Positions 1 through 12,066 of a DNA stretch of 12,066 nucleotides are shown here, one piece after another. A program made the translations under genes and the position numbers. Origin of the DNA: Longivirga aurantiaca (GTDB lineage: Bacteria; Actinomycetota; Actinomycetes; S36-B12; CAIYMF01); NCBI RefSeq assembly GCF_042660085.1, contig NZ_JBHSTI010000012.1, forward strand, positions 1-12,066. The letters run 5' to 3'. The notes beneath the pieces are model-generated. The model made no database searches. It was given only the letters and a program-made list of their open reading frames with translations, and was not told where the DNA came from. Every line of letters begins with the position of its first letter. Positions within the stretch are counted from its first letter, which is position 1.

Positions 1-92
1 ACGACGACGTCGACGACACGGGCCTGTCCGGACTCGCGCTCGTGCAGCGCGAGCTCGGCGGCACGGTCATGACCGAGTACGACAACGGCTGA
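1..92 (+). CDS. 3' end of an upstream CDS cut by the window edge (last 29 codons: [29 protein letters not shown]); product not identifiable. Actinobacteria usually have ybaB/ebfC at this position immediately upstream of recR.
   Basis: Reading frame 3 is open from the window edge to TGA at 90-92. 28 of 29 codons end in G or C, matching the third-position bias of the secure genes here. The stop lies 16 nt before the recR start. Any family call rests on synteny only. Confidence 0.55.
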
Positions 93-108
93 GCCGGACG
101 GGATCACT

Positions 109-708
109 GTGTACGAGGGCGTTGTCCAGGACCTGATCGACGAGCTCGGCCGACTTCCCGGCGTCGGGCCGAAGAGCGCTCAGCGCATCGCGTTCCACGT
201 GCTGCAGGCCGAGCCCACCGACGTCCGCCGGCTCGCGCACGCGCTCATCGAGGTGAAGGACAAGGTCCGGTTCTGCGCGGTCTGCGGCAACGTCGCCGAG
301 GACGTCGAGTGCCGCATCTGCAAGGACCCTCGTCGCGACCCGTCGGTGCTGTGCGTCGTCGAGGAGCCCAAGGACGTCGTGGCGATCGAGCGAACGCGGG
401 AGTTCCGCGGTCGCTACCACGTGCTCGGCGGCGCGATCAGCCCGATCGAGGGGATCGGGCCCGACGACCTCCGGGTGCGCGAGCTCATGATGCGCCTGGC
501 CGACGGCAGCATCACCGAGCTCATCCTCGCCACCGACCCCAACCTCGAGGGCGAGGCGACGGCGACCTACCTCGCGCGGCTGACCAAGCCGCTCGGGCTC
601 ATCGTCACCCGCCTTGCGAGCGGCCTCCCCGTGGGCGGCGACCTCGAGTACGCCGACGAGGTGACGCTCGGCCGCGCGTTCGAGGGACGTCGACGCGTCG
701 AGTTCTGA
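109..708 (+). CDS. recR: Recombination protein RecR (199 aa)
   Basis: GTG start. The N-terminus [30 protein letters not shown] is the RecR helix-hairpin-helix. A C4 zinc finger is present ([16 protein letters not shown]). The Toprim region ([26 protein letters not shown] ... [12 protein letters not shown]) and the C-terminal [19 protein letters not shown] are near-colinear with mycobacterial RecR as I remember it. Confidence 0.96.
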
Positions 709-720
709 CACGCTGTCCCC

Positions 721-1308
721 ATGAGCGACCAGGTGCACGACCACGACCTCGACGAGGATGCGGCACCCGCCGACCTCGCGGACCTCTCCGACCACATGGC
801 GGGCGCCGCCGCGCAGTTCGTGCGCAGCGTCGAGGCGGTCGCCGGTGCGGGCGTGCCGGACGAAGCGGTGTCGATCCTGCTGCTCGAACTGTCCTCGCTC
901 CTCGCGGCCGGTGCCCCGCTCGGCGCGATCGAGGACGTCGTCCCCGACGAGCGGTTCGAGCCCGACGCCGGTGCCGAGCCCGACGTCGACCGCCTGCGCA
1001 ACACGCTGCACGAGCTCCTCGGCCCGGTCGACGACTACGTCGAGGTCTTCGACCCGTACGCCGGCCCCGAGGTGATGGCCGCGCGGCTGTCCGACGACCT
1101 GTCGCAGATCACCTCCGACCTGCTGCACGGCCTGGCCCACCACGCGGCCGGCCGCCCGCTCGAGGCACTGTGGTGGTGGCAGTTCTCCTACCTGTCGACG
1201 TGGGGCCCGGCGGCCTCGGCAGCACTGCGCGCGCTGCAGTCGCTCGTCGCGCACGTGCGGCTCGAGGTGCCGATCGACGCCGACGTCGACGCCGACGCCG
1301 CGCTCTGA
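721..1308 (+). CDS. Acidic hypothetical protein, DUF5063-type (195 aa)
   Basis: ATG lies 12 nt after the recR stop. GC3 is high, the N-terminus is strongly acidic, and the C-terminal motif LEALWWWQFSYLSTWG matches my memory of the DUF5063 family. That family is commonly found directly downstream of recR in Actinobacteria. The family call has not been checked by HMM. Confidence 0.75.
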   Translation: MSDQVHDHDLDEDAAPADLADLSDHMAGAAAQFVRSVEAVAGAGVPDEAVSILLLELSSLLAAGAPLGAIEDVVPDERFEPDAGAEPDVDRLRNTLHELLGPVDDYVEVFDPYAGPEVMAARLSDDLSQITSDLLHGLAHHAAGRPLEALWWWQFSYLSTWGPAASAALRALQSLVAHVRLEVPIDADVDADAAL

Positions 1309-1332
1309 CGACGCCGAGAGATCACGCTCCGT

Positions 1333-1349
1333 ATGCGCGGTTCGCGCAT
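1333..1349 (+). terminator. Candidate intrinsic terminator hairpin after the recR/DUF5063 pair
   Basis: Perfect 7-bp stem ATGCGCG (1333-1339) / CGCGCAT (1343-1349) with a GTT loop, 25 nt after the stop at 1306-1308. There is no U-tract, which is common for actinobacterial terminators but lowers confidence. Confidence 0.3.
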
Positions 1350-1415
1350 CGGACAGCCTCCCGGCGCTCAAGCGGGGCCGTGGCATAGTCGATCCTCAGG
1401 AGGGGACCGTCCTCG

Positions 1416-1436
1416 CTCGTCACCGCCGGTGACGAG
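1416..1436 (+). promoter_or_regulatory. Perfect 9-bp inverted repeat in the leader of the M15 peptidase gene; function unknown
   Basis: CTCGTCACC (1416-1424) / GGTGACGAG (1428-1436) with a GCC loop, 24 nt upstream of the GTG at 1461. It could be an RNA hairpin or a protein operator. The inverted repeat is directly visible; the role is not. Confidence 0.2.
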
Positions 1437-1460
1437 GGCGGCCCGGGAGCGGGGAAGCCT

Positions 1461-3011
1461 GTGCGCGGACTGGCCCGGTCGGCAGCGGCCACGGCAGTGA
1501 TCGCGCTGTCGGCTGCGCTGCTCGTCGTGCCGGCAAGCGCCGTCGCCGTCCCGCCCTCAGCGGTCGACGACTCCGTCACCCTCCCCGGTCGCACCGTGGT
1601 CGTGGTGGACGTCCTCGGCAACGACACGTGGACCGGCACGCCCGACCTCGTCGTCCCCCGTCGCAACCAGACCGGCGGCCCGGAGCACGGCAGCGCCACC
1701 GTCACGACCACGACCGTCGACGGCGTCGAGCGGCCCGCGGTGTCGTACGACCCCGACAACAGCTGGTACGGCGTCGACACCTTCACCTACACGCTCACCG
1801 ACGGCTCGGGCCGGGACGCGGTCGCGACGGTCACGGCCACGACGACCCCGGTGCCCCCGACCGCCGGGCCCGACGCCGCGACCACTCCGCCCGGGGCCGA
1901 GGTGCGGATCCCGGTGCTCGGCAACGACAGCGACTCCTACGACGAGAGCCTGACCGTCACCTCCGTCGCCAACCCCGCGCGCGGCACGGCCGTCATCGAC
2001 GGCAGCGATGTGCTCTACACGCCGGACGACGGGTGGAGCGGCACGGAGACCTTCAACTACCGCATCACGTCGGCGACGGGCGCGACCGCGGTCGGACCCA
2101 TCACGGTGACCACGCTCGCCTCCACGCCCGGCCACTCCATCACGGTGTCGGCCACGCCGACCGTCATCGTCCAGCGCTACCTGGGCTTCAAGGGCGCCGT
2201 CGACCCGCTGGACGGCGGCCCCGTCACCGTCACCGTGCAGCGCAGGACCAGTGCCGGGTGGAAGACCGTCACGACCACGACGGCCAGGTCGAACGGGTCG
2301 TGGTACGTCCTCATCAAGCCGGACGTCGTGGGCACGATCTCCTGGCGCGCGCGTGCGGTCTGGGCCGACGGGTCGTCGTCCGTCGCGGAGACGCAGAGCA
2401 CCGTGACGGCCTCGGCCGACGCGGTGGTCTCGGGTCCGCTCACCCGCTCGTCCGTCCCGTACTCGTACCGCAACGGCTGCCCCGTCGGTCCGTCGCAGCT
2501 GCGCCGGATCTCGGTGAACTACTGGGCGTACGACGGCACGGTGAAGCGCGGCGACATCATCGTGCGCTACTGGGCCGTCGACACCATCCGCGCGGTGTTC
2601 AAGAAGTCGTTCGACGTGAAGTTCCGCTTCAAGACCATCCGACCGGTCGACTACTTCTACGCCGGCGGCACGCGCAGCCCGAGCGGCTCGGACATCGCGG
2701 CGATGAACGCGGGCAACACCTCGGCCTTCAACTGCCGTCCGGTCACGGGCAACCGCTACCGCATCAGCCAGCACTCGTACGGCAACGCCCTCGACATCAA
2801 CACCTTCGAGAACCCCTACGTCACCTGGTCGCGCGTGTACCCGGCGGCTGCTGAGTACCCCTACCACCGCTTCCGCAAGTACAACCTCGACGACCACGGC
2901 GTCATCTCGACGTACTCCGTCGTGGCCCAGACCTTCAAGGCGTTCGGGTGGGTGTGGGGCGGTCGCTGGTCGCCGCCGGACTACCAGCACTTCAGCAGCA
3001 ATGGCGGCTGA
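1461..3011 (+). CDS. Secreted multidomain cell-wall peptidase (516 aa): signal peptide, two cadherin/Ig-like repeats, a beta-rich middle domain and a C-terminal M15-family (VanY / D-Ala-D-Ala carboxypeptidase-like) zinc peptidase
   Basis: GTG start preceded by GGGGAAG. The signal peptide is MRGLARSAAATAVIALSAALLVVPASA|VA. The two repeats carry the VLxND ... YxPxxxxxGxDTFxY signature. The C-terminus has H438-x6-D445 (SQHSYGNALDIN, codons 2772-2774 and 2793-2795) and H510 (WGGRWSPPDYQHF, 2988-2990). This is the H-x6-D...H zinc triad of the LAS/M15 fold. Confidence 0.85.
   Translation: MRGLARSAAATAVIALSAALLVVPASAVAVPPSAVDDSVTLPGRTVVVVDVLGNDTWTGTPDLVVPRRNQTGGPEHGSATVTTTTVDGVERPAVSYDPDNSWYGVDTFTYTLTDGSGRDAVATVTATTTPVPPTAGPDAATTPPGAEVRIPVLGNDSDSYDESLTVTSVANPARGTAVIDGSDVLYTPDDGWSGTETFNYRITSATGATAVGPITVTTLASTPGHSITVSATPTVIVQRYLGFKGAVDPLDGGPVTVTVQRRTSAGWKTVTTTTARSNGSWYVLIKPDVVGTISWRARAVWADGSSSVAETQSTVTASADAVVSGPLTRSSVPYSYRNGCPVGPSQLRRISVNYWAYDGTVKRGDIIVRYWAVDTIRAVFKKSFDVKFRFKTIRPVDYFYAGGTRSPSGSDIAAMNAGNTSAFNCRPVTGNRYRISQHSYGNALDINTFENPYVTWSRVYPAAAEYPYHRFRKYNLDDHGVISTYSVVAQTFKAFGWVWGGRWSPPDYQHFSSNGG
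1560..2114 (+). other. Two tandem cadherin-like / bacterial Ig-like repeats inside the peptidase (about aa 34-127 and 134-218)
   Basis: Repeat 1 reads DDSVTLPGRTVVVVDVLGNDTW...VSYDPDNSWYGVDTFTYTLTDGSGRDAVATVTAT. Repeat 2 reads PDAATTPPGAEVRIPVLGNDSDS...VLYTPDDGWSGTETFNYRITSATGATAVGPITVTT. The pattern is the same in both copies. Boundaries are approximate. Confidence 0.7.
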
Positions 3012-3804
3012 CGCACGCCTCCTGCGACGCGGCGCCGTCTCGGTCCTGACCGCCGGCGTCGTGCTCGCCGTGGGCGGGTGCGGGGGCTCCCCGGAGCAGC
3101 AGGCTCCCGAGCCGACGCCCTCGGTATCGTCGGCCACGCCGTCCCCGTCGCCGTCTCCGAGCGCGAGCGACGCGAGCCCGTCGGCCTCGGCGACCTCCGG
3201 GACGCCGACCGCGTCGCCGTCCGGCTTCGACCGCACCGCGACGCCCGCGACCAGCAGCGGCCCGCTGTCGGGCAGCGCGCTCCCCGACCCGCAGGTTCTG
3301 GGGTCCGGCTGGGTGGCGCGCGTCGACCCCGGCAGCGCGGAGGACGGCTACACCGGCAACGGCACGCCCGTGATCGCCCGCGACCCGAAGGATCTCGCGC
3401 AGGCGATCCTGCCCATCGGCTGCGCGGACGCCTCGGTGTACGGCGTCGCGCCTCCCGTCGCCGAGCACGCGCTCGAGGTCGACTACGCCTACCGCGCGAC
3501 CGGCGCGCACGGCATCGCGCTCGCGCTCGACTTCGGTGACGAGGCCACGGCGCAGCGGTTCGTCTCGGTCTACACCGGCGCCCTGAAGCGCTGCACGCCC
3601 GGCGAGGGCGGATCGATGGTCGTGACCGTCGCGCCTGCGCCCCCTGGGGCGTTCGCGAGCGTGCAGACCGACGGGGCGTTCGGCACCACCTGGCGCGAGC
3701 TCGTCGTGCGGACCGGCGCGGTGGTGCGGCTCGTCGCCGTCGAGGGGAAGTCCACGCCCGCGCGCCCGTGGTCGCAGGTGCTGGCCTCGCTCCCCGCGCT
3801 CTGA
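3001..3804 (+). CDS. Putative lipoprotein (267 aa) with a Ser/Pro/Thr/Ala-rich linker and a Cys-containing globular C-terminal domain; possibly a PknH-like extracellular sensor fold (weak)
   Basis: The ATG at 3001 overlaps the peptidase stop (ATGGCGGCTGA, 11-nt overlap). The signal peptide has RR (LLRRGAVSVLTAGVVLAVGG|C) and a lipobox Cys27 at 3079-3081. A low-complexity SPSPSPSAS linker follows. The C-terminal domain has Cys in PIGCADA and LKRCTPG. GC3 is high throughout. Confidence 0.8.
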   Translation: MAADARLLRRGAVSVLTAGVVLAVGGCGGSPEQQAPEPTPSVSSATPSPSPSPSASDASPSASATSGTPTASPSGFDRTATPATSSGPLSGSALPDPQVLGSGWVARVDPGSAEDGYTGNGTPVIARDPKDLAQAILPIGCADASVYGVAPPVAEHALEVDYAYRATGAHGIALALDFGDEATAQRFVSVYTGALKRCTPGEGGSMVVTVAPAPPGAFASVQTDGAFGTTWRELVVRTGAVVRLVAVEGKSTPARPWSQVLASLPAL

Positions 3805-3892
3805 CCGTCCCAGCGGACCTGTGCGCGACCGTGAATCCTTCGCCCGGGACCCCCGGAGACCGCGTCTGCGAGGGCCGTTCGTCCGCCGTACC

Positions 3893-3913
3893 GGGATCCG
3901 AAACGGAGATCCC
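3893..3913 (+). other. Hairpin in the ask upstream region; function unknown
   Basis: GGGATC (3893-3898) / GATCCC (3908-3913) with a 9-nt loop whose ends can pair further. It is flanked by an 8-bp long-range inverted repeat, CGTACCGG (3887-3894) / CCGGTACG (3949-3956). Confidence 0.25.
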
Positions 3914-4009
3914 ACCATTCGGACGCGAGGGCTGTGCGATTTATCCCGCCGGTACGATGAGCGCGATTCCTGACCCTGTCGGCACCAGCACGTGAGGCGG
4001 ACCCCCACC

Positions 4010-6429
<2,420 letters not shown>

Positions 6430-6478
6430 CGCTGCTCGGCACGAGGAACGCGCTTCGGAGCCTCAGCCCCCGCCTCGG

Positions 6479-6498
6479 CCGGCGGCTCAGCCGCCCGG
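6479..6498. terminator. Candidate bidirectional terminator hairpin between convergent asd and the downstream minus-strand gene
   Basis: CCGGCGGC (6479-6486), loop TCA, GCCGCC(C)GG (6490-6498). This gives 8 GC pairs with a one-base bulge. The loop is the stop codon (TGA on the minus strand) of the 6487-7071 gene. There is no U-tract. Confidence 0.3.
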
Positions 6499-7071
6499 CG
6501 GCGTGCGGAGCTGCTCCGCCAGCCGGATGTGCCCAGTCAGCTGGGCGATCCCCTGCTCGATCCGGTCGGTCGTCATGGGCCTGACGGCATCCGCCACGGT
6601 GCCGCTGTCGACGTCGCCGAGGGCCTTCGCCAGCCACTCGAAGTGGTCCCAGAGGTCGGGTGATCCGTACTCCTCACGGCACGCCAGCACCTCGGGTGCC
6701 ATGGCGGCCCACCACCCGCACACGTGCGCGCCCAGCGTCATCTTCATGACGCGCAGGTTCATGTGTCCGCCCTGGGCGAGCGTGCCGACGTACTCCCAGT
6801 AGTTGCACGTCTCCCACGCCACGGATTCCCGCGGGATCCGGCCGTCGCGGATCTGTTCGTACGCCGTCCTCCTCATGCGCAGCATCTGCTCGCTGCCCCA
6901 TTCGCGGACGATCTCCAGCAGCTGCTCCCTCGCCACGGTGCTCGCCTGCAGCCTCAGCTGCTTCCAGATGGCGATGAAGGTCACGGCGGTGACGAGGCCC
7001 GTGAGGGCCGTCCAGAACCACTCCGAGCCCGGGCCGAGCAGGGACGCGCCGTCGGTGTTGATCACGTTCAT
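6487..7071 (-). CDS. Hypothetical single-pass membrane protein (194 aa from ATG 7071; upstream GTG at 7080 possible); pattern resembles DUF4760
   Basis: On the minus strand, GAGG (7080-7083) lies 8 nt upstream of ATG 7071. There is one N-terminal TM helix (EWFWTALTGLVTAVTFIAIW). The soluble domain is Trp/His/Cys-rich (CNYWEYVGTLAQGGHMNLRVMKMTLGAHVCGWWAAMAPEVLACREEYGSPDLWDHFEWLAKAL). Its spacing matches my recollection of DUF4760, but this is unverified. Confidence 0.7.
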   Translation of the reverse strand: MNVINTDGASLLGPGSEWFWTALTGLVTAVTFIAIWKQLRLQASTVAREQLLEIVREWGSEQMLRMRRTAYEQIRDGRIPRESVAWETCNYWEYVGTLAQGGHMNLRVMKMTLGAHVCGWWAAMAPEVLACREEYGSPDLWDHFEWLAKALGDVDSGTVADAVRPMTTDRIEQGIAQLTGHIRLAEQLRTPPGG

Positions 7072-7184
7072 GGCGACCACCTCGGGACTGGTGCCAGGAC
7101 CTCCCGCGGAGGTGCTGCTGGCTGCGCCGTCGATGCTGCCGCCTCGGCTCGGCGCTGCGCCGGGAAAGCCGGGAGTTGCTCGGC

Positions 7185-7679
7185 CTACCGGCGGCGAGCC
7201 GCCTCGAGGGCCTCACCGATGGCCACCGCACCGGCGCGCGATTCGTCGACGGTCACGGCGAACCGGCGGCCGCCCTCGAGCCCGAGCACGATGCCGGGCC
7301 CGCGCCGGATCACCGCTGCCGACGCGCGCGCCCACGGGATCCAGCGGTAGCCCCAGCCGCCCCACTCCATCGGATCGATCTGCCCGGCGCTGACCTCGCG
7401 GATGTCGGCGAGCGCAAGAGTGCGTCGCGGCCAGCCGAAGGGGCCGTAGGCGACGACGACGCGGTCGTCCTCGACGCGCATGACGAGAGAGCTGAGCAGG
7501 TAACCGGCGACGCCGACGACGACCGCGACGACCACGAGGAGCCAGCCGATCCAGGCGGGTGCGCCCGTTCCGCGGGTCGCGAGGAGGAGCGCCCCGCCGA
7601 CCCCGCCGATCACGAGCACGATGCCGAGGCTGAGGAGGGCGAGCCCCCGGCTCGCGCAGCGGCCCGTCCAACGCGTCAC
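7185..7679 (-). CDS. Small membrane protein (164 aa from GTG 7679) with two TM helices and a C-terminal bacterial PH-like domain
   Basis: The TM helices are GLALLSLGIVLVIGGVGGALLLA and WIGWLLVVVAVVVGVAGYLLSSLV. They are followed by VEDDRVVVAYGPFGWPRRTLALADIREV...GWGYRW...AVIRRGPGIVLGLEGGRRFAVTVDES, typical of bPH domains. The track start at 7832 would overlap the divergent MBL gene and adds a non-protein-like Arg/Pro-rich extension. GTG 7679 is the first plausible start. Confidence 0.7.
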   Translation of the reverse strand: MTRWTGRCASRGLALLSLGIVLVIGGVGGALLLATRGTGAPAWIGWLLVVVAVVVGVAGYLLSSLVMRVEDDRVVVAYGPFGWPRRTLALADIREVSAGQIDPMEWGGWGYRWIPWARASAAVIRRGPGIVLGLEGGRRFAVTVDESRAGAVAIGEALEAARRR

Positions 7680-7686
7680 GGCGTCG

Positions 7687-7692
7687 ACCCTA
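7687..7692 (-). promoter_or_regulatory. Candidate -10 hexamer TAGGGT (minus strand) for a leaderless transcript of the PH-domain membrane protein
   Basis: The TANNNT hexamer lies 7 nt upstream of the GTG at 7679. The same bases could instead act as a weak SD. Sequence pattern only. Confidence 0.25.
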
Positions 7693-7761
7693 CCGAGCGT
7701 GCGGCGACCACTCGTCCGGGGAACATCCCGATGATCGGCCGCACACCGGTGGGCTCGTGGG

Positions 7762-7767
7762 TAGTCT
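7762..7767 (+). promoter_or_regulatory. Candidate -10 hexamer TAGTCT for a leaderless transcript of the MBL-fold hydrolase gene
   Basis: The TANNNT hexamer ends 6 nt before the GTG at 7774, and there is no SD-like purine tract in between. This is the geometry reported for leaderless mRNAs in Actinobacteria. Confidence 0.3.
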
Positions 7768-7773
7768 GCGCCG

Positions 7774-8595
7774 GTGCGACTGATGCTGCTGGGAGTCCGA
7801 GGGTCCACCCCCGCGCCGGGCGAGGACTTCACCCGCTACGGCGGTCACACCTCGTGCGTGGCCGTGTTCCATGACGGCAGCGACGTCCCCGCCCTCGTGC
7901 TCGATGCCGGCACGGGGCTGCGCGACCTCACCAAGGTGCTCGCGGGGGCGCCGTACCGCGGATCGATCCTGGTGAGCCACCTGCACTGGGACCACGTGCA
8001 GGGCCTGCCGTTCTTCGTCGCGGGCGACCGGCCGGACGCCGAGGTCGACTTCTACGTGCCCGCACAGAACGCGCGGACAGGCCGCGATCTGCTGGCCGCC
8101 GCGATGGCGCCGCCGAACTTCCCGATCACGCCCGAGGGCCTGCAGGGGAAGTGGACCTTCACGGCGCTCGAGGCCGGCTACCACCAGGTCGCCGGCTTCC
8201 GGGTGCGCGCGACCGAGGTGAAGCACAAGGGCGGTCGCACGTTCGGCTACCGCGTGAGCGACGACACGGGCTCGATCGCCTACCTGCCCGACCACATCAC
8301 CTCCACCGGCGTCAGTAACGAGGTGAAGGACCTGATTCACGACGTCGACGTGCTGCTGCACGACGCGCAGTTCGTGGAGAAGGAGCGGGCGCTGTCCGAC
8401 GCCTACGGGCACTCGACGGTCGATGACGCCATTGCCCTCGCCCGCGAGTGCGGTGCGCGTCGGTTGGTGGCGTTCCACCACGGACCAGCTCGCACCGACG
8501 ACGCGCTCGACGCGCTCGTGGTCAACCACGCCGACGAGCCCTGGGTGTCGTTCGCCCGTCAGGGCGACGTCGTCGTCGTCGGCCGTCCCGCCTAG
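7774..8595 (+). CDS. MBL-fold metallo-hydrolase (273 aa), Lactamase_B_2-like; substrate unknown
   Basis: The N-terminus is MRLMLLGVRGSTPAPGEDFTRYGGHTSCVAV. The metal motif HLHWDH (H-x-H-x-D-H) is at 7978-7995. Later His/Asp ligands sit in TEVKHKGG, YLPDH, LLHDAQF and AFHHGP. Confidence 0.88.
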   Translation: MRLMLLGVRGSTPAPGEDFTRYGGHTSCVAVFHDGSDVPALVLDAGTGLRDLTKVLAGAPYRGSILVSHLHWDHVQGLPFFVAGDRPDAEVDFYVPAQNARTGRDLLAAAMAPPNFPITPEGLQGKWTFTALEAGYHQVAGFRVRATEVKHKGGRTFGYRVSDDTGSIAYLPDHITSTGVSNEVKDLIHDVDVLLHDAQFVEKERALSDAYGHSTVDDAIALARECGARRLVAFHHGPARTDDALDALVVNHADEPWVSFARQGDVVVVGRPA

Positions 8596-8618
8596 TCCGC
8601 GCCGGGGGTCGGCCGCTG

Positions 8619-11600
8619 TCAGGCGAGCAGGTCGCCGGCCTCGTCGAGGAGGGCCCGGCCCGCCTGGCGGCCGGACTCCACCATCCGGTCGAGCTGGTGG
8701 AACTCGAGCAGGCCGACGCCCATCGACGACGGCGTCACCACGATCGCACCGGCCGCCCGGGCGTGCGCGACGGCGCCGCCGCTGCCGATGAACAGCGAGC
8801 GCATGAGCGTCTCGCCGATCGCCGGCACGCGGATGCGCTTGGGTTCCGCCGGCACCGTGCCCGCCACGTGCGGCCGCGCGTCGCCGCCCATGCCGATGTT
8901 GACTGCGATGATCGGGCCCTCGTCGCGCTCGGTCAGGACGTGCACGGGCAGGTTGTCGAGCACACCGCCGTCGGCGAGCAGGCGCTGTCCGTCCGGCCGG
9001 GGCGGGAACATGCCCGGGATGCTGAGCGACGCCATCACCGCTGAGGTGAGGTCTCCCGTGCGGTGCACGTACGGCGTGCGCGATTGCAGGTCGGTGCTCA
9101 CGCAGCGGAACAGGATCGGCAGCTCCTCGATGCCGATGCCCGTGAGACGGCGGCGCAGCGCCTTCTCGGTCTTGCGGCCCTTCACGAGCGCCGCGGTGGG
9201 GAGCGTGTAGTCGTCGAACGGGTTGTTGCGCACGAACTCCTCGTGGCACATCTCGATCGCCGTGCGGGCGTCGATGCCGCGCGCATGCACCGCGGCCATG
9301 ATCGACCCCTGGCTCGCGCCGACGACGCGGTCGACGTGGATGCCGGCGTCCTCGAGCTCGAGCAGGATGCCGAGGTGCGCGAACGCGCGTGCACCGCCGC
9401 CGGCCATGACGATGCCGACCGACCGTCCGGCGATGCGCCCGGCGAGCGCGCGCGTGCCCACCGAGAACGGCGCCTTGGTCTGCGTGATCCGGTACGGCGC
9501 AAGCACTTCCTGCCAGGCGCGGATTCGCTCGCCGGGCACAGGGGCACCGACGAGCACGAGGTCGACGTCGGTGCGTCCGAGCGGTGCCTCGACCGGCACG
9601 GGGGCGTCGTGCGCGGCCACGAGCACGAGCAGGTCGGCCTGGCGCACGGCCATCGCCCACCAGGCGGCGTCCGGGTCCTCCGCCACGATCAGGACACGGT
9701 CGTTCTCCCGCTCGGCCCGCTCGAGCGCGGCCGGCTCGACCTGGCCGGGCCGGGCGACGCGCAGCGACGTGGCCGACAGGTGGCCGTCGATCGCGTCCGC
9801 CACTGCGGAGGCCGGTGCGCCGCGGTGCAGCGCCGCGACGGCGATGAGCCGCGGCTGGGGCGGCCGGCCGGCAGGTGCCGGGGCGGCGTCCTGAAGCTGC
9901 GAGGCGAGCACCCCGGTGAGGGCACGCAGCGCGCGCGGGTCGCTGCCGACGACCTCGTCGAAGGTCGACTGAGAGACGCGCAGCAGGTGGCTGTCGCGGC
10001 GCGCGCGGATGGACGCCGACCGCGTGCCGCCGGTCAGCAGCGCCAGCTCGCCGATGACAGCCCCGGCGCCGACCTGGCGGACGACGTTGCCGTCCTGCTC
10101 GACGTCGAGAAGGCCCGCGGTGACGACGTACACGTCGTCGGCGGGGTCTCCTGCGGTGAACAGCAGCGTGCCCGCGGCGAGGTCGAGCTTCTCGGCCCCG
10201 GCCTCGAGGCGGCCCCGGACGTCGTCGGGAAGCCGGGAGAGGAGCGGTGCGGCCGACAGCGCGCTCGCCGGGGCAGCCGAGGGTGCGGGGGGGTCGGGCA
10301 CCGAGATGGCGGGCGGACGCACGGAGTCGTCGTCGGCGTCGTCCTGGGTGTGAGGCGCGACCTTCCCGATGAAGAGCGCGATGAGGGCTGTGGCGACGAA
10401 GCAGATGGCGGAGAACACCCAGCCGTGGCGCAGGCTGTCGACAGTCGAGGTGGGCGACGGCGTTCCCACGATGACCACGAGGATCGCGATGCCGAGCACC
10501 GCCCCGATCTGGCGCGCGCTCGAGTTCACCGCGGACGCCGTTGCGAACCGACCGCCGGGAACCGCCGCGAGCGCTGCACTTCCGAGGACGGGCAGGGTGG
10601 CGCCGACGCCGATTCCCGAGAGGATCTGGCCCGGCAGCCACGCGCCCCAGAAGTCCGGTGTGACCTCCACCCGCGCGACGTACCAGACGTAGGCGAGCGC
10701 CCAGACGATCGCGCCGGGGATGATCACCAGCCGGTAGCCGCGGGTCTGCGCGATCGGCCCGAGTCGCGAGGCGAGGATCGCCGCGACGAGCGCACCGGGG
10801 ACGACGGCGAGGCCGGACACGACGATGCTGTAGCCCCAGACGTACTGCAGCCACAGGATGTTCGTGAGCAGGTAGGCGTAGAAGCCGACGCCCGCGACGA
10901 TCGTGGCGAGGTTGCCCACCACGAAGGGGCGGATGCGCAGCAGCGCCGGGTCGAGCAGGGGCGAGCGGTGCCGCTTCGAGCTCACGACGAAGGCCGCGCC
11001 GAGCAGGACCGAGCCGAGGAAGCAGCCGATCACCGCTGGGCTGGTCCACCCCCAGTCCTCGCCCTTGACGATGCCGAGGGTGAGGACGCCGAGCATGAGC
11101 GCCGAGATCGTGGCGCCCAGCAGGTCGGGGACGCGTCGGCGCCCCGGCGCCCGGCTCTCGACCAGGGCCCGCTTCGCAGCGATGACCGCCGCGATCCCGA
11201 ACGGCAGGTTGACGAGGAAGGCGAGGCGCCAGTTGCCGAGCTCGACGAGGGCACCGCCGATCGGCGGCCCGAGACCCGAGGCGAGGGCCGCGGACGCGCC
11301 CCAGAGGCCGATCGCGTGCGCCCGCTTCTCCGCGGGGAAGGCCTCGACCACGAGGGCCAGGGACGCAGGGACGAGCACCGCGGCGCCGAGGGCCTGCAGG
11401 ACGCGGAACGCGACGAGCACCTCGACGCTCGGTGCCACCGCGCACAGCACCGAGGCGAAGGTGAAGATCGTGACGCCGTTGATGAACGCGCGCTTGCGGC
11501 CGAGCAGGTCGGCCAGCCGACCCGACACGACGAGGAACGCCGCGAACACGATGCTGTAGGCGTTGAGGATCCACGACAGCGTCGAGATCGTGGAGTCGGG

Positions 11601-11762
11601 GAACGACTCCCGGATGTTGGGAAACGCGACGTTGACGATGGTCGCGTCGAGGAACGCGAGGAACGCCCCGAACGAGGCGACGAGCAGCACCGTGCGCGAG
11701 GAGACGCGTGGGCGCACCCTCGTCTCGGGCAGCGCAGCAGCGCCAGCAGCGGTCACGTGCAC
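8619..11762 (-). CDS. Tri-functional fusion protein (1047 aa): DHA2-family 14-TM MFS transporter + cyclic-nucleotide-binding domain + unassigned alpha/beta module + patatin-like phospholipase (NTE-family-like)
   Basis: GTG at 11762 is preceded by GGAGAGGG 8 nt upstream. One uninterrupted high-GC3 frame covers the whole gene. Motifs for each module are listed in the sub-features below. The gene ends 23 nt from the stop of the convergent MBL gene. Confidence 0.9.
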   Translation of the reverse strand: MHVTAAGAAALPETRVRPRVSSRTVLLVASFGAFLAFLDATIVNVAFPNIRESFPDSTISTLSWILNAYSIVFAAFLVVSGRLADLLGRKRAFINGVTIFTFASVLCAVAPSVEVLVAFRVLQALGAAVLVPASLALVVEAFPAEKRAHAIGLWGASAALASGLGPPIGGALVELGNWRLAFLVNLPFGIAAVIAAKRALVESRAPGRRRVPDLLGATISALMLGVLTLGIVKGEDWGWTSPAVIGCFLGSVLLGAAFVVSSKRHRSPLLDPALLRIRPFVVGNLATIVAGVGFYAYLLTNILWLQYVWGYSIVVSGLAVVPGALVAAILASRLGPIAQTRGYRLVIIPGAIVWALAYVWYVARVEVTPDFWGAWLPGQILSGIGVGATLPVLGSAALAAVPGGRFATASAVNSSARQIGAVLGIAILVVIVGTPSPTSTVDSLRHGWVFSAICFVATALIALFIGKVAPHTQDDADDDSVRPPAISVPDPPAPSAAPASALSAAPLLSRLPDDVRGRLEAGAEKLDLAAGTLLFTAGDPADDVYVVTAGLLDVEQDGNVVRQVGAGAVIGELALLTGGTRSASIRARRDSHLLRVSQSTFDEVVGSDPRALRALTGVLASQLQDAAPAPAGRPPQPRLIAVAALHRGAPASAVADAIDGHLSATSLRVARPGQVEPAALERAERENDRVLIVAEDPDAAWWAMAVRQADLLVLVAAHDAPVPVEAPLGRTDVDLVLVGAPVPGERIRAWQEVLAPYRITQTKAPFSVGTRALAGRIAGRSVGIVMAGGGARAFAHLGILLELEDAGIHVDRVVGASQGSIMAAVHARGIDARTAIEMCHEEFVRNNPFDDYTLPTAALVKGRKTEKALRRRLTGIGIEELPILFRCVSTDLQSRTPYVHRTGDLTSAVMASLSIPGMFPPRPDGQRLLADGGVLDNLPVHVLTERDEGPIIAVNIGMGGDARPHVAGTVPAEPKRIRVPAIGETLMRSLFIGSGGAVAHARAAGAIVVTPSSMGVGLLEFHQLDRMVESGRQAGRALLDEAGDLLA
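8673..9419 (-). other. Patatin-like phospholipase domain, about aa 782-1030
   Basis: The oxyanion-hole motif GGGAR is at 9387-9401 (VGIVMAGGGARAFAHLG). The nucleophile elbow is G-A-S817-Q-G (Ser codon 9312-9314). The catalytic Asp931 lies in LLADGGVLDNLP (8970-8972). All three are in canonical order and spacing. Confidence 0.85.
9897..10247 (-). other. Cyclic-nucleotide-binding (CAP effector-type) domain, about aa 506-622
   Basis: LLSRLPDDVRGRLEAGAEKLDLAAGTLLFTAGDPADDVYVVTAGLLDV follows the beta-roll pattern. The phosphate-binding cassette GELALLTGGTRSASIRA (10014-10052 covers G571-A583) retains Glu572 and the Arg581-Ser-Ala triad. Confidence 0.8.
10359..11702 (-). other. MFS transporter module, DHA2 (EmrB/QacA-like), about 14 TM segments (about aa 21-468)
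   Basis: LDATIVNVAFP in TM1 and motif A GRLADLLGRKR between TM2 and TM3. I count 14 hydrophobic segments by eye. With the usual N-in topology the C-terminal soluble half would be cytoplasmic. Confidence 0.8.
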
Positions 11763-11774
11763 GTGTATCGCCCT

Positions 11775-11797
11775 CTCCCCGGTTCCCCGGCGGGGAG
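11775..11797 (-). promoter_or_regulatory. Hairpin in the 5' leader of the fusion gene that can pair with part of its Shine-Dalgarno tract
   Basis: The minus-strand RNA reads CUCCCCG-CCGGGGAAC-CGGGGAG, then AGGGCGAUACAC-GUG. The 7-bp GC-rich stem has a 3' arm (GGGGAG) that forms the first half of the GGGGAGAGGG purine tract used as SD. Confidence 0.3.
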
Positions 11798-11922
11798 CAT
11801 GTCACCGTCACCCGTCCGCTACGCCGCGTTTCGGTGAATCGGGGTCTGTGTCGGGCCTCCGGTGACGGACGACGACGAAGTCGTCAGGTGCGGCGTCCGC
11901 GGCGTGTCGGCGTGCGGCGCAG

Positions 11923-12066
11923 TCATCGGTCGTACGGCGGCCTTCGGCCGCGGTCCCTGCGGTCGTACTCGGTCTCGGGGTGACAGGAGCCGTCCCGCGG
12001 GACCGCGGCGGGCGCCGGCGCCGCTGGGCAGCGGGCGCGGCCTTCGGCCGAGAGGGGCTGGCGCGG
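11923..12066 (-). CDS. Possible 3' end of a minus-strand CDS entering from the right edge (...CHPETEYDRRDRGRRPPYDR*); product unknown
   Basis: The minus frame is open from 12066 to TGA (complement of 11923-11925). 42 of 47 codons end in G/C, the best GC3 of the frames I checked here. The peptide is low-complexity and a plus-strand frame from GTG 11862 also shows elevated GC3 for about 30 codons, so the call is weak. Confidence 0.3.
   Translation of the reverse strand, partial: PRQPLSAEGRARCPAAPAPAAVPRDGSCHPETEYDRRDRGRRPPYDR

Follow-up and report, generated by a model that had tools for sequence, protein, structure and literature searches.

In the present study, a 12,066-nucleotide stretch of the Longivirga aurantiaca genome (contig NZ_JBHSTI010000012.1, positions 1 to 12,066; hereafter the window) was analysed with respect to one gene on its minus strand, which encodes a transporter of the major facilitator superfamily (MFS), a cyclic-nucleotide-binding domain (CNBD) and a patatin-like acyl hydrolase in a single polypeptide. 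This fusion gene is intact, chromosomal and vertically inherited, and its product is an inner-membrane protein of Longivirga, a member of the Actinomycetes. The domains follow one another in the order 14-transmembrane-helix DHA2 MFS transporter, flexible tether, CNBD, degenerate P-loop-NTPase-like domain and patatin. The first-pass annotation of this DNA had recognised three modules, all of which are present, but a fourth folded domain (residues 637-780) had been overlooked; likewise, the frame it described is real, but its location on the minus strand had not been stated. Herein, we favour a model, which we give about an even chance of being correct, in which the protein is a lipid hydrolase gated by a cyclic nucleotide monophosphate (cNMP) and coupled to a lipid-moving MFS transporter.

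The gene occupies one uninterrupted frame of 1047 codons, as had been claimed:

8619..11762, minus strand: whole coding sequence, 1047 codons and a TGA stop at 8619-8621, with a GTG start at 11762

The GC contents at the three codon positions (0.74/0.52/0.94) are the coding signature of this genome, and the peak of GC at the third position (GC3) keeps a single phase throughout approximately 8550-11700, so that there is no sign of a frameshift in the coding sequence. The length of an open reading frame (ORF) alone is uninformative here, because the window has a GC content of approximately 72% and therefore yields many spurious long off-frame ORFs; two of these that overlap the real gene, encoding 1373 amino acids (aa) at 7690-11811 (minus strand) and 924 aa at 9063-11837 (plus strand), were rejected as high-GC artefacts on the basis of their off-frame GC3 pattern. 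Two in-frame GTG codons, two codons apart, lie at 11754-11762 on the minus strand. The ORF list and the closest homologue from a metagenome-assembled genome (MAG), P0001 (1047 aa), take the first of these, and a Shine-Dalgarno-like run, GGAGAGGG, ends 9 nt upstream of it; the RefSeq/PGAP start is the GTG at 11754-11756, two codons downstream of the GTG at 11762, which gives a protein of 1045 aa. Scans for Rfam families, tRNAs, promoters and terminators around the gene gave no result.

Several lines of evidence support the assignment of the modules. First, the N-terminal half has, judging from its sequence, the hallmarks of a proton-coupled exporter of the EmrB/QacA/EfpA type. Conservation was assessed in an alignment of 50 homologues with identities down to 57%, and the DHA2 motifs D1, A, B and C, whose definitions are established knowledge, were located as follows:

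10377..11699, minus strand: DHA2-type MFS domain, residues 22-462, 14 transmembrane helices with both termini inside (N-in/C-in), from Pfam, TIGR00711, AlphaFold2 (AF2) and Foldseek
11619..11651, minus strand: MFS motif D1, LDATIVNVAFP, in transmembrane helix 1, residues 38-48, with the membrane-embedded Asp39, invariant in the 50 homologues
11490..11522, minus strand: MFS motif A, GRLADLLGRKR, in the cytoplasmic loop between transmembrane helices 2 and 3, residues 81-91, from the homologue alignment
11247..11276, minus strand: antiporter motif C, GLGPPIGGAL, in transmembrane helix 5, residues 163-172, from the homologue alignment

Within motif A, residues G81, R82, D85, L86, G88 and R89 are invariant, as are G163, L164, G165, P166, P167, G169 and G170 of motif C, the motif B sequence FRVLQALGAA in transmembrane helix 4 and a large number of Gly, Pro, Asp and Arg residues inside the membrane. 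The protein matches Pfam MFS_1 with an E value of 1.4e-44 (152.9 bits against a cut-off of 33.4), and residues 26-432 match the NCBIfam DHA2/EmrB model TIGR00711 with 249.2 bits against a curated cut-off of 230.2. By these scores and those given below for the other modules, the matches to Pfam and NCBIfam models are significant far beyond chance, and the expectation that MFS, cNMP_binding and Patatin would all exceed their curated Pfam cut-offs was borne out. A full-length AF2 model built on the 50-homologue alignment (predicted local distance difference test score, pLDDT, 82.6; predicted template-modelling score, pTM, 0.71) contains 14 transmembrane helices between residues 22 and 462, the number proposed earlier. 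With the helix boundaries of this model, the side predicted to be cytoplasmic has 25 Lys and Arg residues and the outer side 3, a distribution that predicts an N-in/C-in topology and hence a cytoplasmic location of the soluble half, in agreement with the earlier proposal. Foldseek likened the MFS half to EmrB and EfpA (target-normalised template-modelling scores, TM-scores, of 0.76-0.82), and the closest solved MFS homologues by sequence are EfpA (1.5e-45; TM-score 0.82), EmrB, QacA and 8pnl, a homologue of the triacylglyceride transporter Rv1410. EfpA has been experimentally shown to be a lipid transporter (PMC11536138, PMC11375168).

Second, the transporter is followed by a tether and a CNBD in which the ligand-contacting residues are preserved:

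10233..10376, minus strand: flexible tether, acidic and Pro/Ala-rich, residues 463-510, poorly conserved and of low pLDDT
9888..10232, minus strand: CNBD, residues 511-625, a beta-roll with C-terminal hinge/lid helices, from Pfam, the PDB and AF2
10014..10052, minus strand: phosphate-binding cassette (PBC), GELALLTGGTRSA, residues 571-583, from alignment with the type I regulatory subunit of protein kinase A (PKA RI)

The Pfam cNMP_binding match has an E value of 1.2e-17 (64 bits against a cut-off of 27.5), and the AF2 model has beta strands at residues 524-597 followed by helices. PKA RI is the closest solved structure, with a PDB sequence match at 1.6e-15, and its cassette, GELALIYGTPRAA, aligns without gaps to GELALLTGGTRSA. 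Both residues proposed to contact the ligand fall on ligand-contacting columns of PKA RI, Glu572 (codon 10047-10049) on the ribose-contacting and Arg581 (codon 10020-10022) on the phosphate-contacting column, and G571, E572, R581 and A583 are invariant. The residue after the cassette arginine, Ser582 (10017-10019), is a nearly invariant Ser (R-S-A) that corresponds to Ala in PKA RI; both cGMP-selective domains and some domains that bind cAMP carry Ser or Thr here.

Third, the C-terminal portion comprises a P-loop-like domain and a patatin domain with an intact catalytic dyad:

9423..9854, minus strand: degenerate SIMIBI-type P-loop-NTPase-like (NTE_Ploop-like) domain, residues 637-780, from AF2 and Foldseek
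8622..9422, minus strand: patatin-like acyl-hydrolase domain with a C-terminal helical extension, residues 781-1047, from Pfam and comparison with PlpD
9387..9401, minus strand: oxyanion-hole loop GGGAR, residues 788-792, matching GGAAR of PlpD and GGGAK of VipD, invariant
9306..9320, minus strand: nucleophile elbow GASQG, residues 815-819, matching GTSMG of PlpD and GASAG of VipD
8964..8972, minus strand: catalytic Asp motif DGG, residues 931-933, matching DGG of PlpD and VipD, invariant

In the full-length model, residues from approximately 639 to 780 form a well-ordered alpha/beta domain, and residues 637-780 were modelled alone with a pLDDT of 94.9. Foldseek likened this domain to P-loop NTPases of the SIMIBI class, including MipZ, ParA, FleN/FlhG, SRP54/FtsY, HypB and UreG. 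The would-be P-loop reads ALHRGAPAS (consensus ALHPGAP) and lacks the GK[ST] of Walker A, which makes nucleotide hydrolysis unlikely on sequence grounds. The linker itself scores below the cut-off of the Pfam model NTE_Ploop (PF24179; E=0.1, 12.8 bits, cut-off 27); this model, however, matches 12 of 46 close homologues at E<=0.01 (best 7.9e-6) and distant relatives of the soluble module at 30.1 and 117.6 bits, with E values as low as 9e-34. Because a P-loop-NTPase-like domain sits between the CNBD and the patatin domain, the cytoplasmic half is best read, from both sequence and model, as a bacterial version of the module of the neuropathy target esterase (NTE) family, which consists of a CNBD, a P-loop-like domain and patatin. 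The Pfam Patatin match (PF01734) has an E value of 1.6e-28 (100.6 bits against a cut-off of 27.7), and the closest solved patatin is PlpD (8e-25 by sequence; target-normalised TM-score 0.84 with Foldseek). G815 and S817 are invariant, the codon of Ser817 being 9312-9314 and that of Asp931 8970-8972. The motifs quoted in the first-pass annotation were found at the residues given there, its numbering of E572, R581, S817 and D931 is correct, and alignment with PlpD and VipD placed Ser817 and Asp931, like the two CNBD residues, on functional columns. As a review describes, enzymes of the patatin type hydrolyse acyl bonds with a Ser-Asp dyad (PMC10865251).

The architecture is widespread. The window protein is identical over 1045 of 1045 residues to RefSeq WP_386768484.1 (Longivirga, Sporichthyaceae), which is named 'MDR family MFS transporter/patatin-like phospholipase family protein', and relatives held by the Joint Genome Institute (JGI) are named 'NTE family protein' or 'EmrB/QacA subfamily drug resistance transporter'. 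As the RefSeq name covers both halves, the architecture has already been recognised by annotation pipelines. A protein search returned 1706 matches, the best 120 of which all carry the three Pfam domains and are nearly all full length (approximately 1030-1130 aa). In a scan of species-representative genomes, 252 relatives were confirmed; the locus counts reported herein refer to the best 80 of these 252, taken as species loci with 4-kb flanks. These 80 show nearly whole-length coverage, 54-92% identity and the same domain order, and their hosts are Nanopelagicales-type MAGs, Nocardioides, Marmoricola, Phycicoccus, Janibacter, Nostocoides, Ornithinibacter, Tetrasphaera, Actinotalea and a Mycobacteriales MAG. 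The survey of the distribution of the fusion, which had been suggested as a check, thus places the full-length form in at least 80 species genomes from several actinomycete orders. An exhaustive search with the soluble half alone gave 2,159 clusters (50% identity) at E<=1e-30, and the top 150 clusters are mostly stand-alone proteins of approximately 540-600 aa, together with approximately 19 MFS fusions of approximately 1020-1140 aa, for six of whose representatives the architecture was confirmed with Pfam. The fusion is kept in clusters whose soluble half is 37-43% identical and is thus conserved over deep divergence. The earlier presentation of the protein as an unusual fusion was accurate in that the fusion is real, but it is already in RefSeq and the soluble module is very common as a stand-alone protein. 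The family is known and catalogued in databases.

Two full-length fusion paralogues were observed in one bin of a Marmoricola sp. MAG, DASTFI01 (L030 and L068). M. tuberculosis presumably also carries two paralogues of the MFS-cNMP-patatin family, Rv3239c and Rv3728, for which McCue et al. 2000 (Genome Res 10:204) is said to be the source. In the literature, Rv3239c and Rv3728 have been listed as MFS pumps (PMC6300501), and both exceed 800 aa (PMC10916221). Rv3728 further appears as a hypothetical esterase whose annotation covers efflux and lipids (PMC10865251), and elsewhere under the description 'two domain membrane protein' (PMC3908365). These entries corroborate the parallel indirectly. 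Of 36 papers that name the two genes, none does so in the title or abstract, and the genes figure only in lists. A further candidate, the 'circularly permuted' CNBD-patatin-MFS protein P0193, was rejected as an independent second fusion, since its locus (L086) is an indel artefact or a pseudogene pair. At positions 4001-9035 of this locus, a stand-alone CNBD-patatin gene with a garbled C-terminus runs in-frame into a downstream MFS-CNBD-patatin gene; the latter is in turn broken by a change of frame near 6700-7000. The pattern reflects either an indel error in long reads or a tandem pair in decay.

Comparison with known systems places the protein more precisely. The window protein is a member of the actinobacterial MFS-cNMP-patatin family, with the same domain order and no structural difference. 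It resembles the NTE family (PNPLA6/NTE, PNPLA7 and Drosophila SWS) in its membrane tethering, its order of CNBD, P-loop-like domain and patatin, and its Ser-Asp dyad (PMC6995513). NTE, however, has a single N-terminal transmembrane helix and three CNBDs, whereas the window protein has a 14-helix MFS domain and one CNBD, which marks it as a bacterial relative of the NTE module rather than an NTE orthologue. Over its whole length, its soluble half can be aligned, with 36-47% identity, to stand-alone bacterial CNBD-(P-loop-like)-patatin proteins, which we take to be Rv2565-like; these have no transporter and are presumably soluble or peripheral. With the DHA2 transporters EfpA, EmrB, QacA and Rv1410/MHAS2168, the window protein shares the 14-helix fold (TM-scores of 0.71-0.82), 24-29% identity and the motifs, but all of these lack a cytoplasmic enzyme or sensor, and EmrB works with EmrA and TolC. 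The likeness to LplT-Aas is conceptual: there too, a lipid transporter of the MFS works alongside an enzyme that modifies lipids, and in some cases the two are fused. LplT is a 12-helix importer/flippase of a different MFS family, and Aas builds lipids whereas patatin degrades them; unlike the window protein, LplT-Aas has no second-messenger sensor. Finally, the Pycsar and CBASS effectors (PycTIR, PycTM and the patatin CapV) share the principle of an effector that contains a CNBD or is activated by a cyclic nucleotide, with patatin as a membrane-lytic effector, and the CNBD of PycTIR is the best match of the window protein in PADLOC. However, no system-level match and no defence-island or mobile context was found, and the window protein has an intact antiporter.

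Herein, we propose the following sequence of events for the favoured model. A cyclic nucleotide, probably cAMP from class III cyclases, would bind the CNBD and move its C-terminal lid helix. The change would be relayed through the P-loop-like domain, by which the patatin hydrolase might be activated or shut off on the cytoplasmic side of the membrane, at the inner leaflet. The tethered MFS transporter would then move the substrate or product of the hydrolase, such as a lysolipid, a free fatty acid or a deacylated headgroup, in the direction from the inner leaflet outward, as for EfpA. What we infer here is which ligand binds, whether it activates or inhibits, which lipid is the substrate and that enzyme and transporter are coupled. 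A stronger reading, which we regard as tentative, holds that the protein is an obligatorily coupled, cNMP-gated single-polypeptide lipid-remodelling machine in actinobacterial envelope homeostasis, in which the cyclic nucleotide would switch the patatin on and the DHA2 half would expel or flip the lysolipid or fatty acid, or would deliver the substrate.

The genomic context bears on the ligand. In 15 of the 80 loci (L002 2743-6534 and L003 327-4211, for example), a large, STAND-type gene encoding a class III cyclase with AAA_16 and TPR domains is found no more than 4 kb from the fusion gene, and the genera so linked are Nocardioides, Marmoricola, Phycicoccus, Janibacter and Actinotalea, together with a Mycobacteriales MAG. 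Other named cyclase loci are L023, L024, L036, L038, L039, L042, L046, L051, L058, L061, L063, L064, L073, L077 and L083. A cyclase within 4 kb in 19% of loci, from several orders, is by our estimate well above random, and this linkage supports genuine cyclic-nucleotide control, albeit circumstantially. Stand-alone CNBD proteins and unrelated MFS-CNBD proteins also occur in some of the 80 loci, and in several lineages cyclases, possible phosphodiesterases and further CNBD proteins cluster near the fusion gene. Together, EfpA among the closest solved homologues and cyclases in 15 of 80 loci make the model plausible, as is the coupling of cNMP sensing, hydrolysis and transport that it assumes. 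In the Janibacter locus L077, the cyclase gene directly follows the fusion gene on the same strand.

Several points weigh against this model. First, cyclase linkage concerns approximately 19% of loci and is absent from the window, and the count may be inflated by shared ancestry. Second, residues of the Ser582 type are found in both cAMP and cGMP binders, so that the identity of the nucleotide cannot be read from the PBC. Third, the CNBDs of eukaryotic NTE have no demonstrated direct binding of cAMP (PMC6995513), and an intact-looking CNBD therefore does not prove ligand control. Fourth, the tether (approximately 45 residues) is disordered and poorly conserved, which suggests proximity rather than a rigid channel between enzyme and transporter and leaves no fixed geometry of patatin active site and MFS cavity to be claimed. 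Fifth, no mechanistic study of the fused family was found in the searchable literature, in line with the earlier statement that the protein is mechanistically undescribed. Lastly, EmrB and QacA, ordinary drug or metabolite pumps of the DHA2 family, score as well as EfpA.

This last point leads to the alternative of a regulated efflux pump, in which the MFS half would export a non-lipid drug or metabolite, the CNBD module would tune transport, and the patatin domain would be an unrelated housekeeping or vestigial enzyme. Besides the closeness of EmrB and QacA, the protein passes the EmrB/QacA subfamily model of DHA2, and independent MFS-CNBD proteins without patatin adjoin some homologues. A review treats C-terminal regulatory domains, CNBDs among them, as recurrent add-ons to MFS transporters (PMC10710835), and Rv3728 stands with rifampicin in a table of M. 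tuberculosis efflux pumps and drug resistance (PMC6300501). However, the catalytic dyad, the oxyanion loop and nearby motifs of the patatin domain are invariant, which implies an enzyme under selection. In addition, the CNBD, P-loop-like and patatin domains occur together in thousands of stand-alone proteins, which indicates that the ancestral partner of the CNBD is the lipase and not the MFS transporter, and the MFS part of the patatin-less neighbour has no BLASTP-detectable similarity to that of the window protein. We therefore consider this explanation unlikely.

A second alternative is that the MFS domain does not transport but serves as a membrane anchor positioning an NTE-like (lyso)phospholipase, as the single transmembrane helix does in eukaryotic NTE. 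NTE requires a transmembrane anchor alone (PMC6995513), and most relatives of the soluble module do without any MFS. A decaying anchor, however, would lose motifs A, B, C and D1 and the intramembrane Gly, Pro, Asp and Arg residues, and their invariance across the 50 homologues and a score that exceeds the curated cut-off for DHA2 point to a functional antiporter rather than a mere anchor; this alternative is accordingly judged improbable. Third, the CNBD might bind no ligand and play a structural or protein-interaction role, as has been suggested for NTE and SWS, with a hydrolase that is constitutive or otherwise regulated. The findings for NTE cited above, namely that there is no evidence of cAMP binding (PMC6995513), are in keeping with this possibility, as is the absence of a cyclase from the window and from most of the 80 loci. 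Against it, the Gly-Glu...Arg-x-Ala pattern of the PBC is invariant and corresponds column for column to that of the ligand-binding PKA RI, and in several lineages the gene has cyclases, CNBD proteins and possible phosphodiesterases clustered in its vicinity, so that a ligand-free domain seems quite improbable.

Fourth, the protein could be an abortive-infection effector resembling those of Pycsar or CBASS, in which a cyclase signal activates a membrane-destroying phospholipase. PADLOC gave a match to a PycTIR-type CNBD at 3e-16 and a weak match to a CBASS phospholipase at 1.8e-4, cyclases are nearby in 15 of 80 loci, and the metallo-beta-lactamase (MBL)-fold neighbour in one related locus carries a precomputed, unconfirmed Apyc1 label. 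However, the PADLOC matches are at the level of domains only, the nearby cyclase resembles PycC weakly (approximately 1e-5, versus 5.7e-21 for a generic class III model), and the Apyc1 label was not reproduced by Pfam scans. Moreover, the gene lies in conserved housekeeping synteny (recR, ask and asd), the fusion was absent from phages, the full module was found on plasmids only in two Methylobacterium megaplasmids, and such a system would have no use for an intact antiporter; a role in defence is thus highly improbable. Finally, the merging of two or three adjacent genes by sequencing or assembly error, as the merging and splitting in the related metagenomic locus L086 might suggest, has a negligible probability given one coding phase across the whole ORF, the same full-length architecture in at least 80 independent genomes, cultured strains included, and an identical RefSeq annotation.

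If the cNMP-gated, transport-coupled hydrolase is real, bacteria would for the first time offer an example of a membrane-lipid hydrolase that is linked to a lipid transporter and controlled directly by a cyclic nucleotide, and a conserved actinobacterial family would gain a function. This family presumably includes two orphan cAMP-binding proteins of M. tuberculosis, a species in which cAMP signalling is of medical interest, and the stronger reading, if true, would also explain these two orphan paralogues. The related MFS transporter EfpA of M. tuberculosis is likewise of medical interest (PMC11536138). In addition, the family could serve as a tractable bacterial model for the control of NTE-type patatin enzymes, including human NTE, by CNBDs (PMC6995513). 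As it stands, the analysis is a correct reading of an annotated gene, and its value lies in a well-defined experimental target rather than in a discovery.

In the window, the neighbours of the fusion gene are recR, a DUF5063 gene, an M15 peptidase gene with Big_9 domains, ask, asd, a DUF4760 gene and a convergent gene for an MBL-fold hydrolase, and the same housekeeping synteny stands beside the 92%-identical homologue (L001). The last of these neighbours is recurrent:

7774..8595, plus strand: MBL-fold hydrolase gene, convergent recurrent neighbour, Pfam Lactamase_B_2 at 5.5e-24

Its stop codon and that of the fusion gene are separated by 23 bp. In 24 of the 80 loci, distant genera included, the 4-kb flanks of the fusion gene contain an orthologue; the MBL gene and the cyclase gene are both present in 8 of the 80, and at least one of the two in 31. 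A precomputed label, 'Anti-Pycsar_Apyc1' (a cNMP phosphodiesterase family), attached to the MBL neighbour in L001 and L002 remained unconfirmed and was not adopted: Pfam scans of the proteins from the window, L001 and L002 returned Lactamase_B_2 and Lactamase_B_3 only, a PDB search gave weak RNase Z matches only, and PADLOC gave no match. Candidate activities for the product are those of a cNMP phosphodiesterase, an RNase Z-like enzyme and a lipid phosphodiesterase. Searches for mobile carriers did not place the fusion on phages, and among plasmids the full module was found only on the two Methylobacterium megaplasmids mentioned above, under stand-alone-sized matches.

MFS-CNBD proteins without patatin (approximately 545 aa) were observed beside the fusion gene in L002 (11177-12823), L003 (1-271), L051, L053 and L056. 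The possibility that such a neighbour is a truncated paralogue was rejected, since the L002 protein shares the CNBD alone with the window protein (34% identity); as the MFS parts have no BLASTP-detectable similarity, CNBDs have been joined to MFS transporters independently in the same genomes. Upstream of the MBL gene, a 215-aa ORF at 7185-7832 (minus strand) has a coding-like GC3 of 0.87 and matches no Pfam family. Its 5' end overlaps the annotated MBL start by approximately 59 bp, it is kept beside the MBL gene in 11 of the 80 loci, and the start codon of one or the other has probably been miscalled. Between the M15 peptidase gene and ask, a 267-aa ORF at 3001-3804 (plus strand), with a strong coding signal (GC3 of 0.95) and no Pfam match, has a 261-aa counterpart in the same position in L001.

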